Shown here piece after piece: positions 17,325 to 55,178 of a DNA stretch of 64,000 nucleotides. Below the pieces are notes generated by a model. It had not been told where the DNA came from, searched no databases, and saw nothing but the letters and a program-made list of their open reading frames with translations. Made by a program: the position numbers and the translations under genes. Origin of the DNA: Escherichia coli O127:H6 str. E2348/69 (GTDB taxonomy: Bacteria; Pseudomonadota; Gammaproteobacteria; Enterobacterales; Enterobacteriaceae); NCBI RefSeq assembly GCF_000026545.1, contig NC_011601.1, one strand, 5' to 3'. The number at the start of each line of letters is the position of its first letter. Position 1 is the first letter of the stretch.

Positions 17325-17460
17325 GCCGGATGCGGCGTGAACATCTTATCCGGCCTACACAGAGCATCGAACTCGTAGGCATGATAAGACGCGACAGCGT
17401 CGCATCAGGCATTGTGCACCGTATCGCCAGATGCAGCTTGAACGCCTTATCCGGCCTACA
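17325..17460. repeat. BIME cluster (three REP-like palindromic units)
   Basis: gccggatgcggcgtgaacatcttatccggcctaca ... gacgcgacagcgtcgcatcaggc ... cgccttatccggcctaca. Confidence 0.8.
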
Positions 17461-46890: not shown

Positions 46891-48243
46891 ATGACTAAAC
46901 ACTATGATTACATCGCCATCGGCGGCGGCAGCGGCGGTATCGCCTCCATCAACCGCGCGGCTATGTACGGCCAGAAATGCGCACTGATTGAAGCCAAAGA
47001 GCTGGGCGGCACCTGCGTAAATGTTGGCTGTGTGCCGAAAAAAGTGATGTGGCACGCGGCGCAAATCCGTGAAGCGATCCATATGTACGGCCCGGATTAT
47101 GGTTTTGATACCACTATCAATAAATTCAACTGGGAAACGTTGATCGCCAGCCGTACCGCCTATATCGACCGTATTCATACTTCCTATGAGAACGTGCTCG
47201 GTAAAAATAACGTTGATGTAATCAAAGGCTTTGCCCGCTTCGTTGATGCCAAAACCATTGAAGTCAACGGCGAAACCATCACGGCCGATCATATTCTGAT
47301 CGCCACCGGTGGTCGTCCGAGCCACCCGGATATTCCGGGCGTGGAATACGGTATTGATTCTGATGGCTTCTTCGCCCTTCCGGCTTTGCCAGAGCGTGTA
47401 GCGGTTGTTGGCGCGGGTTACATCGCCGTTGAACTGGCGGGCGTGATTAACGGCCTCGGTGCGAAGACGCATCTGTTTGTGCGTAAACATGCGCCGCTGC
47501 GCAGCTTCGACCCGATGATCTCTGAAACGCTGGTTGAAGTGATGAACGCTGAAGGCCCACAGTTGCATACCAACGCCATCCCGAAAGCGGTAGTGAAAAA
47601 TGCCGATGGTAGCCTGACGCTGGAGCTGGAAGATGGTCGCAGTGAAACGGTGGATTGCCTGATTTGGGCGATTGGTCGCGAGCCTGCCAATGACAACATC
47701 AACCTGGAAGCTGCTGGCGTTAAAACCAACGAAAAAGGCTATATCGTCGTCGATAAATATCAAAACACCAACGTTGAAGGTATTTACGCGGTGGGCGATA
47801 ACACGGGTGCAGTGGAACTGACACCGGTGGCTGTTGCAGCAGGTCGCCGTCTCTCTGAACGCCTGTTTAATAACAAGCCGGATGAGCATCTGGATTACAG
47901 CGACATTCCGACCGTGGTCTTCAGCCATCCGCCGATTGGTACTGTTGGTTTAACGGAGCCGCAGGCGCGCGAGCAGTACGGCGACGATCAGGTGAAAGTG
48001 TATAAATCCTCTTTCACCGCGATGTATACCGCCGTCACCACTCACCGCCAGCCGTGCCGCATGAAACTGGTATGCGTTGGACCGGAAGAGAAGATTGTCG
48101 GTATTCACGGCATTGGTTTTGGTATGGACGAAATGTTGCAGGGCTTCGCGGTGGCGCTGAAGATGGGTGCAACCAAAAAAGACTTCGACAACACGGTTGC
48201 CATTCACCCGACAGCGGCAGAAGAGTTCGTGACAATGCGTTAA
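46891..48243 (+). CDS. gor: glutathione reductase
   Basis: 450 aa [51 protein letters not shown] (FAD-binding fold and redox-active CVNVGC disulfide). Confidence 0.97.
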
Positions 48244-48249
48244 ATGTTA

Positions 48250-48283
48250 AAGGGCTAAGAGTAGTGTGCTCTTAGCCCTTAGC
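48250..48283. terminator. bidirectional hairpin terminator between convergent gor and dinQ
   Basis: aagggctaagag tagtgtg ctcttagccctt perfect 12-bp stem. Confidence 0.6.
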
Positions 48284-48296
48284 TACGTTTCCGCTA

Positions 48297-48380
48297 TCAG
48301 TTCAGAAGCTGAAGCAGAAAGCGGATCAGTTCCAGCAGCGCAATTAACGCCCCAAGAACGATGATTGCTTTATCAATCAC
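48297..48380 (-). CDS. dinQ: type I toxin peptide DinQ (single-TM membrane peptide, SOS-inducible)
   Basis: Minus-strand GTG-initiated 27-codon ORF (M)IDKAIIVLGALIALLELIRFLLQLLN; below the 60-aa ORF-track cutoff, found by direct translation; LexA box upstream. Confidence 0.8.
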   Translation of the reverse strand: MIDKAIIVLGALIALLELIRFLLQLLN

Positions 48381-48419
48381 CCGTTTTCTCCATGCGATGG
48401 AGTGAGAATGCATCCGCTT

Positions 48420-48510
48420 ACTCATCCATTGCCTGTCACGGCGCATGTCTCATTGTTAGATGACGACTATCTCACTCCGGCCAGAGCATCAGTTAACGGC
48501 ACCACCCGTA
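48420..48510 (+). ncRNA. agrA: putative agrA antisense sRNA (approximate bounds)
   Basis: First copy of a direct repeat (ttagatgacgactatctcactccggccagagca, about 48455..48490) that lies inside the dinQ 5' leader on the opposite strand; boundaries not determinable from sequence alone. Confidence 0.3.
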
Positions 48511-48573
48511 CTTCAGACCAGGACTTTGAAAGCGTTTATGCGCATTGCCAGAGTGAAAATGTCTCAGAACCAA

Positions 48574-48589
48574 CTGGATAATCATACAG
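48574..48589 (-). promoter_or_regulatory. LexA box in dinQ promoter
   Basis: Minus strand CTGTATGATTATCCAG, close to the CTGT-N8-ACAG SOS box consensus, about 190 nt upstream of the dinQ start. Confidence 0.6.
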
Positions 48590-48619
48590 TACTTGCGGGT
48601 TATAAAACCAGCATGTCCT

Positions 48620-48737
48620 TGCAATAGTTTCAGTATGGTATTAGCATTGATGCGTTAGATGATGGCTATCTCACTCCAGCCAGAGCCACCAACTCAGGGC
48701 TGAACAGTAAAAAAACCGACGCGAAGTCGGTTTTTTT
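48620..48737 (+). ncRNA. agrB: putative agrB antisense sRNA (approximate bounds) ending at an intrinsic terminator
   Basis: Second copy of the repeat (ttagatgatggctatctcactccagccagagcca, about 48655..48690) followed by hairpin ccgac gcgaa gtcgg and ttttttt at 48709..48737. Confidence 0.4.
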
Positions 48738-48913
48738 ACGTCCTGATTCAGACCTCCTTTCAAATGAATGCCCAACGCTTAATTCACACCTACACCTTTC
48801 TCTACACTTACATATTCGTTAAACCATATGTGTTTTTGACTTGTCCGCTTTGGTTTGTAACGCTGGTGGCGCTGGCGCTACACCTCTCTTTCACATCGTA
48901 ATGAGATACTGAT

Positions 48914-49339
48914 ATGAGCAACATTACCATTTATCACAACCCGGCCTGCGGTACGTCGCGTAATACGCTGGAGATGATCCGCAACAGCGGTACAGAACCG
49001 ACCATTATCTATTATCTGGAAACACCACCGACGCGCGATGAGCTGGTAAAACTCATTGCCGATATGGGGATTACCGTACGCGCGTTGCTGCGTAAAAACG
49101 TCGAGCCGTATGAGAAACTGGGCCTTGCAGAAGATAAATTTACTCACGATCAGTTAATCGACTTTATGCTTCAGCACCCGATTCTGATTAATCGCCCGAT
49201 TGTGGTGACGCCACAGGGAACTCGCCTGTGCCGCCCTTCAGAAGTCGTGCTGGAAATTCTGCCAGATGCGCAAAAAGGCGCGTTCACCAAGGAAGATGGC
49301 GAGAAAGTGGTTGATGAGGCGGGTAATCGCCTGAAATAA
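48914..49339 (+). CDS. arsC: arsenate reductase ArsC (glutaredoxin-coupled)
   Basis: 141 aa MSNITIYHNPACGTSRNTLEMIRNSG... with catalytic Cys in HNPACGTSR. Confidence 0.95.
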   Translation: MSNITIYHNPACGTSRNTLEMIRNSGTEPTIIYYLETPPTRDELVKLIADMGITVRALLRKNVEPYEKLGLAEDKFTHDQLIDFMLQHPILINRPIVVTPQGTRLCRPSEVVLEILPDAQKGAFTKEDGEKVVDEAGNRLK

Positions 49340-52905: not shown

Positions 52906-54888
52906 TTACCATTGATAACTCACGAAAATTTTTCCGTTACGACCATCCTGTGGGATGCCTTGCGGCGACCAGTACTCTTTATCGAAGGCGTTGCCCAATA
53001 CCAGAGTAGTGGTCATGCCTTTGAGCGCCTGCTGCCCTTGATAACTGACGTAGAAATCATTCACACCATAGCCAGGTTGTTTGCTGTAGCTGCTGCTGAT
53101 ATGTGTTGAGCGATCGGCAAACGTACCGACCCAACCAACAGAGAAGCCACTGTGAGCGATCGGAATATTCAGGGTACTGGTAACGGTATCCGGGTTAATG
53201 CTGGAGATATATTCCCCGGTATCGGTGTCTTTGCCGCGGGTACGGTTATAGGCCACATCAAGGCTAAACAGATCAGTGGTATATTTCGTCATCACATCCC
53301 AGCCCCAGATTTTGGCGTTCGGGACGTTATACGACATAGTTGTCGCCGCCGCGAAATCGACGGTCGTGGAGATATAATCTTTCGCTTTGGTATCAAAGTA
53401 GCTGGCTTTAAATTCCAGAGCATCATTGGACAACATCAGGTCATCAAAACGCAGCCCAAAACCGTACTCCTGAGTTTCGTTAGTTTCCGGACGTAAGTTC
53501 GGGTTTGGCACCCAATAGTTGGTATAGAAGCGACCAATCGAGAAGTGTTTAGAATCGTTATACATTTCGCCCATCGTCGGGGCGCGGAATGCCTGAGCAT
53601 ATGAGCCAAATAACATCAGCCAGTTGGTCGGGTTGATAGTCATCCCCGCACGAGATGACCATTTGTCGGCATCAACATCTTTGTAGCCGTCGCTGCTACC
53701 GCGATAACTGTCATAGCGGGTTCCGCCAAGCAGGGTAATCGGCAGATCGCGTAAGGTGATCTCATCTTGTAGCCAGCCAGAGCTAAAATCGATTTTTGCT
53801 TGCGGGAAGCCCGTCGTCGCGCCACCCGGATGTTGTTCCTGACGATAATACTCACCGCCATATGTCAGTAAGTGAGAAGCGAAACTGTCGGCAAATAGAG
53901 TGGAACGGTTCTCCAGCCTTGCTCCTTTTGTTATCTGTTCACGATACTCGCCTGAACTCCCCGTGTTTTGCGCATTAATACGGACTTCCGACCAGTAAAT
54001 TTTTGCATCTGCATTTAACCAGTCGTTACCCTGCGGGGCGAGTTTATAAGAAAGCTGCGCATCGCGTTGAATTGTTGAACGATCGACCATCGGGTTGCTG
54101 CTATCAGAAGCTTCAACGGTCTGCGGATTTTTTGGTTCACGCGCGTCGTTGTTGTAGTAACGCACTAAACCGCTCAGAGACTGGGCTGAATCAATTTGCC
54201 AGGTCCCTTTCGCCAGCATGTTATTAATGGACTCGTCATTCGGCGCGGTTTCACCATTGCTCTGGCGTAAATCACCCCGATCGCGACTGGACCAGGCCAC
54301 AATACCATCCAGATTTTCAGTTCGCCCAAACGCGCTCGCGCCTAATCCCAGGCTATGGTCCCCCGTGCCGCCAGTACCAAAGACACTAAAACCACTACTT
54401 TGTCCTTCCTGCAATAAATCTTTTGCATCGACCGTATCGTAGGAGATCACCCCACCCAGCGCGCCACTGCCATACAGTAATGCTGAAGGTCCGCGAACAA
54501 TCTCAACACGCTTGATCAGCGCCGGATCAAGAAAAGTACCATTCAGGTGTCCGGTATCCGTTCCCTGGCGAACACCATCGACAAGAACCAGCACGCCGCG
54601 ATGATCATAGCCACGCATATTTACATCCTGACCGTTGGTTCGTCCGGTACCATCAAGAGTAATTCCAGGAACATGACGCAGCAAATCAGTGGCTGAAGTA
54701 GCCGTTTGATTTTCAGGAGCGGAAGTGTCGATAACGCTGACCATCATAGGCGCTTCGAAGGAACTACGTGCATTCCCCGTTGCCGTAACGGTCATGGTTT
54801 CAGTAGCAAAAGCAAACGTTGGCAAGGTGGCAGAAACAGCCAAAGCCAACAAACTCAAACGCAACGAGGTAAATTGCGGACGTGACAT
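52906..54888 (-). CDS. chuA: TonB-dependent outer membrane haem/haemoglobin receptor ChuA
   Basis: 660 aa; signal peptide MSRPQFTSLRLSLLALAVSATLPTFAFA, TonB-box-like ETMTVTA, C-terminal ...KIFVSYQW terminal aromatic. Confidence 0.95.
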   Translation of the reverse strand: MSRPQFTSLRLSLLALAVSATLPTFAFATETMTVTATGNARSSFEAPMMVSVIDTSAPENQTATSATDLLRHVPGITLDGTGRTNGQDVNMRGYDHRGVLVLVDGVRQGTDTGHLNGTFLDPALIKRVEIVRGPSALLYGSGALGGVISYDTVDAKDLLQEGQSSGFSVFGTGGTGDHSLGLGASAFGRTENLDGIVAWSSRDRGDLRQSNGETAPNDESINNMLAKGTWQIDSAQSLSGLVRYYNNDAREPKNPQTVEASDSSNPMVDRSTIQRDAQLSYKLAPQGNDWLNADAKIYWSEVRINAQNTGSSGEYREQITKGARLENRSTLFADSFASHLLTYGGEYYRQEQHPGGATTGFPQAKIDFSSGWLQDEITLRDLPITLLGGTRYDSYRGSSDGYKDVDADKWSSRAGMTINPTNWLMLFGSYAQAFRAPTMGEMYNDSKHFSIGRFYTNYWVPNPNLRPETNETQEYGFGLRFDDLMLSNDALEFKASYFDTKAKDYISTTVDFAAATTMSYNVPNAKIWGWDVMTKYTTDLFSLDVAYNRTRGKDTDTGEYISSINPDTVTSTLNIPIAHSGFSVGWVGTFADRSTHISSSYSKQPGYGVNDFYVSYQGQQALKGMTTTLVLGNAFDKEYWSPQGIPQDGRNGKIFVSYQW

Positions 54889-55178
54889 AGCGATTCTCCA
54901 TGAGGAAAATAAAAAATGCTGGCTGCCTGGGTTAATACCGGGGTGGCTGGCGAAAAATAAATTTATTTACAATTCAAATGATTAGATATCACCACGGGAA
55001 GCTATTAGCGTATATATCCCGTAAAATTGCCGAATATTTCTGATAATTCAGCAAAAGCACGCCCTCTTTGTCAGGCAAAGTAGTACGCCACGTCTGAAGT
55101 GAAGAGTGCTGTGCGTTTTCCCTTACAAAAGATATGATTTTGTTATCCATGATGTCATATTTTGTTAAACTCAAACGT

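Follow-up and report, generated by a model that had tools for sequence, protein, structure and literature searches.

The dinQ/agr locus of Escherichia coli E2348/69: a predicted type I toxin–antitoxin module with one sRNA gene

The SOS-inducible DinQ toxin and Agr antisense RNA system of E. coli is already described, and the dinQ-agrAB locus of K-12 is the subject of the papers of Weel-Sneve et al. 2013 (PMC3567139) and Kristiansen et al. 2016 (PMC5066626). In K-12, DinQ is a toxic inner-membrane peptide (PMC3567139), and dinQ is regulated by LexA, with a +1 transcript of ~330 nt that is inert and a +44 form that is translated (PMC3567139, PMC5066626). It is AgrB, not AgrA, that closes the Shine–Dalgarno (SD) hairpin, stops translation and guides cleavage by RNase III (PMC3567139, PMC5066626). 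In this study, we asked whether the DNA behind gor in E. coli E2348/69 holds the same module, and which RNA would then be its antitoxin. The whole 64-kb stretch of DNA is called the window here. The first-pass annotation had read the DNA behind gor as dinQ-agrAB with two sRNAs; the dinQ locus, SOS box, repeat placement and terminator of this reading stood, with coordinates right to within 1-4 nt, but its two repeat copies could not be kept as agrA and agrB. The alignment to K-12 that it had proposed upheld the orthology of the dinQ locus and the identity of the LexA 20-mer, but K-12's second agr gene was absent. We consider it very likely that the gor-adjacent locus of E2348/69 is an ortholog of the dinQ/agr type I toxin–antitoxin module known from E. 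coli, in a one-sRNA-gene form, and we believe with the same high confidence that it is a complete and presumably expressed module with one cognate sRNA, as predicted from its sequence. No paper naming both 'dinQ' and 'E2348' was found in our literature search. RefSeq gives dinQ in E2348/69 but leaves out the sRNA gene, which is where the annotation value lies; the system-level interest of the E2348/69 locus is low, apart from the population-level leads.

The dinQ gene and its mRNA switch

The 670-bp gor-arsC interval of the window was 100% identical to E. coli E2348/69, and gor (46891-48243) lies directly 5' of the dinQ/agr locus in window coordinates. The dinQ reading frame runs on the minus strand from GTG at 48380 to TGA at 48297, encodes VIDKAIIVLGALIALLELIRFLLQLLN, and is nested as a 27-codon frame within a listed 49-aa ORF. 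RefSeq labels 48297-48380 in E2348/69 as 'damage-inducible type I toxin DinQ', and the peptide scored 54 bits against NCBIfam NF041472 toxin_DinQ (equivalog, cut-off 30), which makes it a member of this family, and 14.9 bits against NCBIfam DqlB, below the cut-off of 35. Judged by these scores, the window peptide is dinQ proper and not DqlB. No DinQ family was found in Pfam. The exact RefSeq coordinates and the NCBIfam score confirmed the minus-strand 27-codon DinQ-like ORF proposed at first pass and, together with the Rfam match of the sRNA gene, the placement of a dinQ type I toxin–antitoxin locus just after gor. The DinQ peptide was unchanged in every Escherichia locus checked, as had been expected for related genomes, and WP_001295215.1 is annotated also in the other fetched complete E. 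coli genomes with uninterrupted dinQ. From its identity to the K-12 peptide of PMC3567139, the product would be a toxic single-pass inner-membrane peptide that causes depolarisation and ATP loss. The coordinates of the features are collected in Table 1.

Table 1. Features of the dinQ/agr locus in window coordinates, with the evidence for each.
Feature	Position	Strand	Evidence
Gor/dinQ hairpin, common to both convergent transcripts; dinQ terminator	48250..48280	.	Perfect 12-bp inverted repeat I3; identical in K-12
Primary dinQ transcript (inferred), ~330 nt, +1 at G48574	48245..48574	-	K-12 numbering transferred via alignment A1
dinQ ORF, GTG start, 27 aa + stop	48297..48380	-	RefSeq CDS WP_001295215.1 at same position in E2348/69
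SD hairpin, sequence 3 : sequence 4	48388..48408	-	PMC5066626 numbering and predicted fold of +1 transcript
Agr binding site in dinQ leader (predicted), mRNA nt 88-120, includes sequence 2	48455..48487	-	PMC5066626 site and repeat alignment
Sequence 1, U16-C28, UUUUCACUCUGGC	48547..48559	-	1:2 duplex in minimum-free-energy fold
LexA operator TACTGTATGATTATCCAGTT	48572..48591	-	Identical to K-12 dinQ operator region in alignment A1
agr promoter, -35 TTGCAA (48619-48624), 17-nt spacer, -10 TAGCAT (48642-48647)	48619..48647	+	Identical upstream of K-12 agrA
agr sRNA gene	48655..48739	+	Rfam RF02891 AgrB 91.5 bits, gathering score 40, full model 1-84
agr Rho-independent terminator	48707..48739	+	Perfect 14-bp inverted repeat I2, 5-nt loop, T7 run
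Junction of 1,686-bp deletion relative to K-12	48850..48853	.	BLAST: homology ends K-12 L001:2490, resumes L001:4177

The LexA operator overlaps the dinQ -10 element (TATGAT, 48586..48581) and the +1 position, and the minus strand carries a LexA-like 16-mer, CTGTATGATTATCCAG, at 48589..48574. The bare CTGT-N8-CCAG motif, on which the SOS box had been proposed, gave 2 matches in the window versus 1.3 expected, which is not significant alone, and it was dropped as stand-alone evidence. The evidence for the SOS box is therefore the full 20-mer shared with the K-12 operator, and with this 20-mer the proposal of an SOS box upstream of dinQ held. The heterology index of the K-12 dinQ operator is 4.83 (PMC3567139). 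As its operator overlaps the promoter, dinQ would belong to the LexA (SOS) regulon, with LexA binding predicted. The -35 element of the dinQ promoter is poor and allowed no confident placement. A second, weak LexA site has been reported in K-12 (HI 13.82); it may be affected by two SNPs just upstream of the operator in the window.

The inferred dinQ transcript differs from that of K-12 at 12 of 330 positions (318/330 nt identical), and four leader differences (nt 106, 110, 111 and 113) fall within the sRNA target. The switch elements of K-12 are sequence 1 (U16-C28), sequence 2 (G94-G106), sequence 3 (U167-U178) and sequence 4 with the SD (A182-G187) (PMC5066626); in the window, sequence 3, sequence 4 and the SD GGAG occupy 48408..48397, 48393..48388 and 48391..48388, respectively. 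The minimum-free-energy fold of the +1 RNA contained the 1:2 duplex (nt 17-28 with 94-105) and the 3:4 SD hairpin, as published, and the fold z-score of the transcript was -5.4. In the fold of the +44 RNA, the 2:3 duplex was formed, and when nt 88-120 were blocked as a mimic of the bound sRNA, the SD hairpin was restored in silico. In the +44 minimum-free-energy fold, the SD pairs with nt 89-92 instead of being open. The thermodynamic folds seem to reproduce the SHAPE-based model only partly, and we take them as support, not proof. The dinQ terminator of K-12 lies just past the gor stop codon (PMC3567139).

A plus-strand ORF (48402-48581) runs antisense to the dinQ leader, and PGAP annotates its 57-aa equivalent as 'hypothetical protein' in several genomes, e.g., L004 2165-2338 and L034 565-738. 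This ORF overlaps the structured RNA leader and is probably spurious.

The agr gene and its pairing with the dinQ leader

A 33-nt direct repeat (48455-48487 and 48654-48686, 30/33 identical) links the leader of dinQ with the agr gene. The 64-kb window contained only these two copies, shuffles gave an expectation of 0, and the binomial estimate of chance occurrence within 800 nt was ~7e-10. The duplicated repeat described at first pass, with its second copy followed by a strong terminator (14-bp stem and T-run), was thus recovered, and so was its placement, with copy 1 inside the dinQ leader and copy 2 upstream of the dinQ promoter. On K-12 dinQ mRNA, the AgrB binding site is G88-A119 (PMC5066626).

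Rfam AgrB gave one above-threshold match only in the whole window (48655-48739). In this sRNA, a 5' part of 32 nt antisense to dinQ is followed by stem-loop 1 and then by the terminator; its fold energy was -30.5 kcal/mol, with a z-score of -5.2. The start at 48655 falls, in the alignment, on the 5' end annotated for K-12 agrA, and the gene consists of the K-12 agrA promoter and the first 25 nt of the AgrA seed, joined to the agrB 3' flank. A weak 5-bp hairpin is possible in the 5' tail of the window sRNA, whereas K-12 AgrB is without such a hairpin. Our promoter and terminator consensus scan missed both the agr promoter and the agr terminator. The promoter was missed because its 8/12 consensus matches are under the scan threshold, and the terminator was probably missed because its A/T-rich lower stem falls outside the scan rule. 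The only plus-strand promoter-like match from the scan (48553-48582) overlaps the LexA box, had no support and was rejected.

The window agr:dinQ duplex of 33 nt contained 30 Watson-Crick pairs, 2 G·U pairs and 1 mismatch, with an energy of -59.0 kcal/mol. For K-12, the AgrB:dinQ duplex had 32 Watson-Crick pairs and 1 mismatch (-59.6 kcal/mol), and the AgrA:dinQ duplex had 26 Watson-Crick pairs, 4 G·U pairs and 3 mismatches (-44.1 kcal/mol). Net energies were obtained by full-length cofolding of each sRNA with dinQ +44 RNA. The net energies of window agr with window dinQ, K-12 AgrB with K-12 dinQ and K-12 AgrA with K-12 dinQ were -39.8, -38.9 and -24.7 kcal/mol, respectively, and those of the crossed pairs, K-12 AgrB with window dinQ and window agr with K-12 dinQ, were -21.8 and -28.2 kcal/mol, respectively. 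A prediction of agr-dinQ pairing had been proposed as a check at first pass, and the window pair gave a strong duplex and net cofold; the sRNA is thus antisense to the toxin mRNA over an extended complementary stretch, as in type I systems. The target patch of the leader is GACGACTAT in E2348/69 and AAGAACTCT in K-12, i.e., a different allele, and K-12 AgrB is predicted, from its net energy, not to match the E2348/69 leader.

The single sRNA might instead be an AgrA-type paralogue without control of DinQ, so that dinQ would be held only by LexA and its own mRNA folding. The sRNA does share its promoter and its first 25 nt with K-12 AgrA, which does not close the SD hairpin and does not inhibit translation (PMC5066626). 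However, K-12 AgrA fails because of its mismatches to the K-12 leader, and the window leader has changed at the four target positions given above, so that the pairing now has 30 Watson-Crick pairs and its duplex energy equals that of the functional K-12 AgrB pair. We consider the paralogue explanation unlikely. Since the allele in the window leader matches, binding of the pair is predicted to be as tight as that of K-12 AgrB:dinQ, and the window sRNA, though AgrA-like by promoter and seed, is the predicted cognate antitoxin. The in-silico restoration of the SD hairpin on blocking nt 88-120 suggests that this antitoxin would repress the translation or stability of dinQ.

By homology to the K-12 experiments, we propose that LexA would repress dinQ via the operator over -10 and +1, and that DNA damage would give the ~330 nt dinQ transcript. 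The +1 form would be untranslatable because sequence 1 locks sequence 2 and the SD is sequestered in the 3:4 hairpin. After removal of the first 44 nt, sequence 2 would pair with sequence 3, which would free the SD, so that the 27-aa inner-membrane DinQ could be made. A constitutive sRNA of ~85 nt, divergent from dinQ and starting at 48655, would pair through its 5' 32-33 nt with dinQ nt 88-120, sequence 2 included; this pairing would re-close the SD hairpin, block translation and expose the duplex to RNase III. All elements of this predicted module are present and intact in the E2348/69 sequence.

The tisB-istR1 pair is likewise an SOS-induced, LexA-controlled type I system of E. coli with a small membrane toxin, in which an inert primary mRNA needs 5' processing and a divergent, constitutive, trans-acting sRNA pairs in the 5' UTR. 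It is unrelated in sequence and in its peptide, and IstR-1 does not flip an SD hairpin but blocks a ribosome standby site. The dql (dinQ-like) genes of Enterobacteriaceae have a 5' UTR architecture and a peptide signature in common with dinQ (PMC5066626). Outside Escherichia, an agr-like sRNA (GTTAGATAAGGTTTGCCTCACTCCAGTCAGAGCCACC...) with a terminator was observed in Citrobacter werkmanii (L011, about 1864-1960), where it presumably partners a dinQ-like (dql) gene.

Architectures of the locus among E. coli genomes

Compared with K-12 dinQ-agrAB (PMC3567139, PMC5066626), the locus of E2348/69 lies at the same chromosomal site after gor, with an identical DinQ peptide (one synonymous change in the dinQ ORF), an identical LexA operator and the same four-element mRNA switch. 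The sRNAs of both are divergent, ~85 nt long and antisense to nt 88-120 with their 5' end, but E2348/69 has one agr gene and K-12 has two. The gene order of K-12 MG1655 is dinQ, agrA, agrB, arsR, arsB, arsC. A 1,686-bp deletion (K-12 L001:2491-4176) takes arsR and all of arsB except the last 49 nt, and arsC (48914-49339) therefore directly follows. The arsC gene is left alone in E2348/69, without repressor or pump. The -35 element of the ars promoter (TTGACT) is kept within 48740-48913, and the sequence after it is replaced by the arsB 3' end.

The dinQ locus was found in 5,422/5,426 complete E. coli genomes, and the shares of its architectures were taken from a 60-row spread sample, supplemented by fetched loci. 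Two agr genes made up ~68% of the sample, one agr gene with arsRB retained ~8%, the window type with one agr gene and arsRB deleted ~4%, and a deletion of 199 bp exactly between the repeats of leader and agr ~13%. The window type was matched by 232 genomes at at least 99% identity. T1TAdb mentions only that AgrA accompanies AgrB in some strains. A single agr was also seen in draft assemblies of E. albertii, Escherichia sp. E1V33 and SCPM-O-B-8794, where it is subject to caution for repeat collapse. In ETEC L7_E1373 (L010, 676-2457), an IS200/IS605 element (tnpA pseudogene and tnpB/insQ) lies within the dinQ leader, and the dinQ product annotated there is shorter (22 aa).

With the 199-bp deletion, the promoters of both dinQ and agr are lost together with the LexA box, and the dinQ ORF is kept. 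We found it in N39 (L003, 2001-2471), in the Nissle derivative SYNB1934 (L008, 1501-1971) and in Nissle 1917 (H91), and its junction was matched at at least 99% identity by 841 records, ~15% of complete E. coli genomes, Nissle 1917 among them. These ~15% of genomes, with the probiotic Nissle 1917 among them, have a dinQ ORF that PGAP still labels 'damage-inducible', although LexA box and promoter are gone. Because Nissle 1917, N39 and other relatives with the same arsRB deletion have also lost the dinQ promoter, LexA box and agr promoter, the E2348/69 locus could be an evolutionary remnant whose expression was lost in the B2 lineage. However, the operator, -10, sequences 1-4, SD, ORF, agr promoter and terminator are all intact in the window, the toxin peptide is unchanged, and the complementarity of sRNA and target has been kept by compensating changes, so we regard a remnant as very improbable.

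Hardly credible is the view that both copies of the repeat represent sRNA genes, agrA and agrB, after the K-12 pattern: K-12 does carry two agr genes and both copies lie on the plus strand, but copy 1 lies within the dinQ transcript, has no plus-strand promoter or terminator present for 48455-48487, reached only 22.3 bits on the plus strand against Rfam AgrB (below the gathering score of 40) and equals the K-12 dinQ target copy in position and sequence, while a third repeat copy is absent from the window and the 231-bp segment with K-12's second agr gene is missing. Two sRNA genes are already contradicted by the sequence, and the dinQ-agrAB architecture, with two agr genes between dinQ and the ars genes, was not found at this locus, which has one Rfam match and two repeat copies. 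K-12 has three repeat copies, which are the dinQ leader target, the agrA start and the agrB start (repeat search, alignment A1). Since the position and sequence of copy 1 equal those of the K-12 copy at the dinQ target site, copy 1 is not agrA, and the two copies of the window versus three in K-12 indicate a single agr gene. The first-pass assignment of both copies to sRNAs fell on this point: only copy 2 is an sRNA gene and copy 1 is its target site, and the K-12 names agrA and agrB are not applicable to the two repeat copies of the window.

Patch alleles and the cognate agr copy

The repeat contains a variable 9-nt patch at its positions 8-16, which corresponds to dinQ mRNA nt 105-113 and, in the window, to 48462-48470 and 48661-48669. 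Patch alleles were typed at loci L001-L010, L022, L031-L043 and L101-L103, and at least four classes were distinguished, namely A (GAYGRCTAT), B (AAGARCTCT), C (RATGGYATT) and D (GTGGGCATT). In 24/24 inspected complete genomes of E. coli whose leader is intact, this leader matched at least one agr copy, with duplex energies of -52.8 to -69.9 kcal/mol. The other agr copy was usually of a different class and reached -42 to -47 kcal/mol, the range of the non-functional K-12 AgrA. The exceptions were O145 RM9872, in which both agr copies bind about equally (~-59.5 kcal/mol), and SCU-102 and KKa019, with a second copy near -53 to -55 kcal/mol.

The cognate copy was the distal one (the K-12 'agrB' position) in K-12, BL21, EC17CM13, WP4-W18, 2020N21-246-1, SCU-102 and KKa019, and the proximal one (the 'agrA' position) in HR12-1, PKF4, E69, VREC0864, M11, EC93, U90, ET846, 21AR0303, isolate 648, O157 F8952 and strain 1613. 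Some genomes have the same agr pair and differ in the leader allele alone, as in (A|A,B) versus (B|A,B) and (C|C,D) versus (D|C,D), which suggests gene conversion among the three direct repeats. We give an even chance to the idea that the 9-nt patch behaves as a switchable specificity code. If this were true, the 'useless' AgrA of K-12 would represent a spare or an alternative allele of the antitoxin, and the antitoxin role that AgrB has in K-12 would not be transferable by position. The antitoxin at a dinQ locus is not assignable by position or by K-12 names; the only antitoxin of E2348/69 is AgrA-type and the predicted cognate. No paper on agr/leader allele variation was found in our literature search. 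Modest, testable leads, we believe, are allele switching at the population level and the frequency with which both promoters are lost.

Metagenome contigs had been considered as a larger haplotype sample, and ten single-copy and two two-copy contigs were apparently without a cognate sRNA. When the haplotypes of L053, L072 and L079 were queried in 5,426 complete genomes, none was found, and the complete genomes nearest to them all had a cognate copy; the other patterns, e.g., those of L044, L046, L051 and L093, lay outside this query. These exceptions are probably short-read collapse or chimerism across repeats, and because of this, and with the queried haplotypes absent from complete genomes, the metagenome counts were left out of the haplotype sample. 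Several metagenome contigs (L053, L058, L066, L067, L083, L092, L099, L072 and L079) showed K-12-type loci without agrB, or allele combinations absent from complete genomes. Collapse of repeats or chimerism between strains across the identical agr bodies (58-85 nt) probably explains such oddities, and agr copy number from draft assemblies calls for caution.

Elsewhere in the window, two other Rfam families scored above their gathering scores. These were naRNA4/CssrE (65.2 bits, 17378-17456, minus strand) and the shuA/chuA 5' UTR thermoregulator (60.1 bits, 54886-54917, minus strand), the latter near the chu haem-uptake genes.
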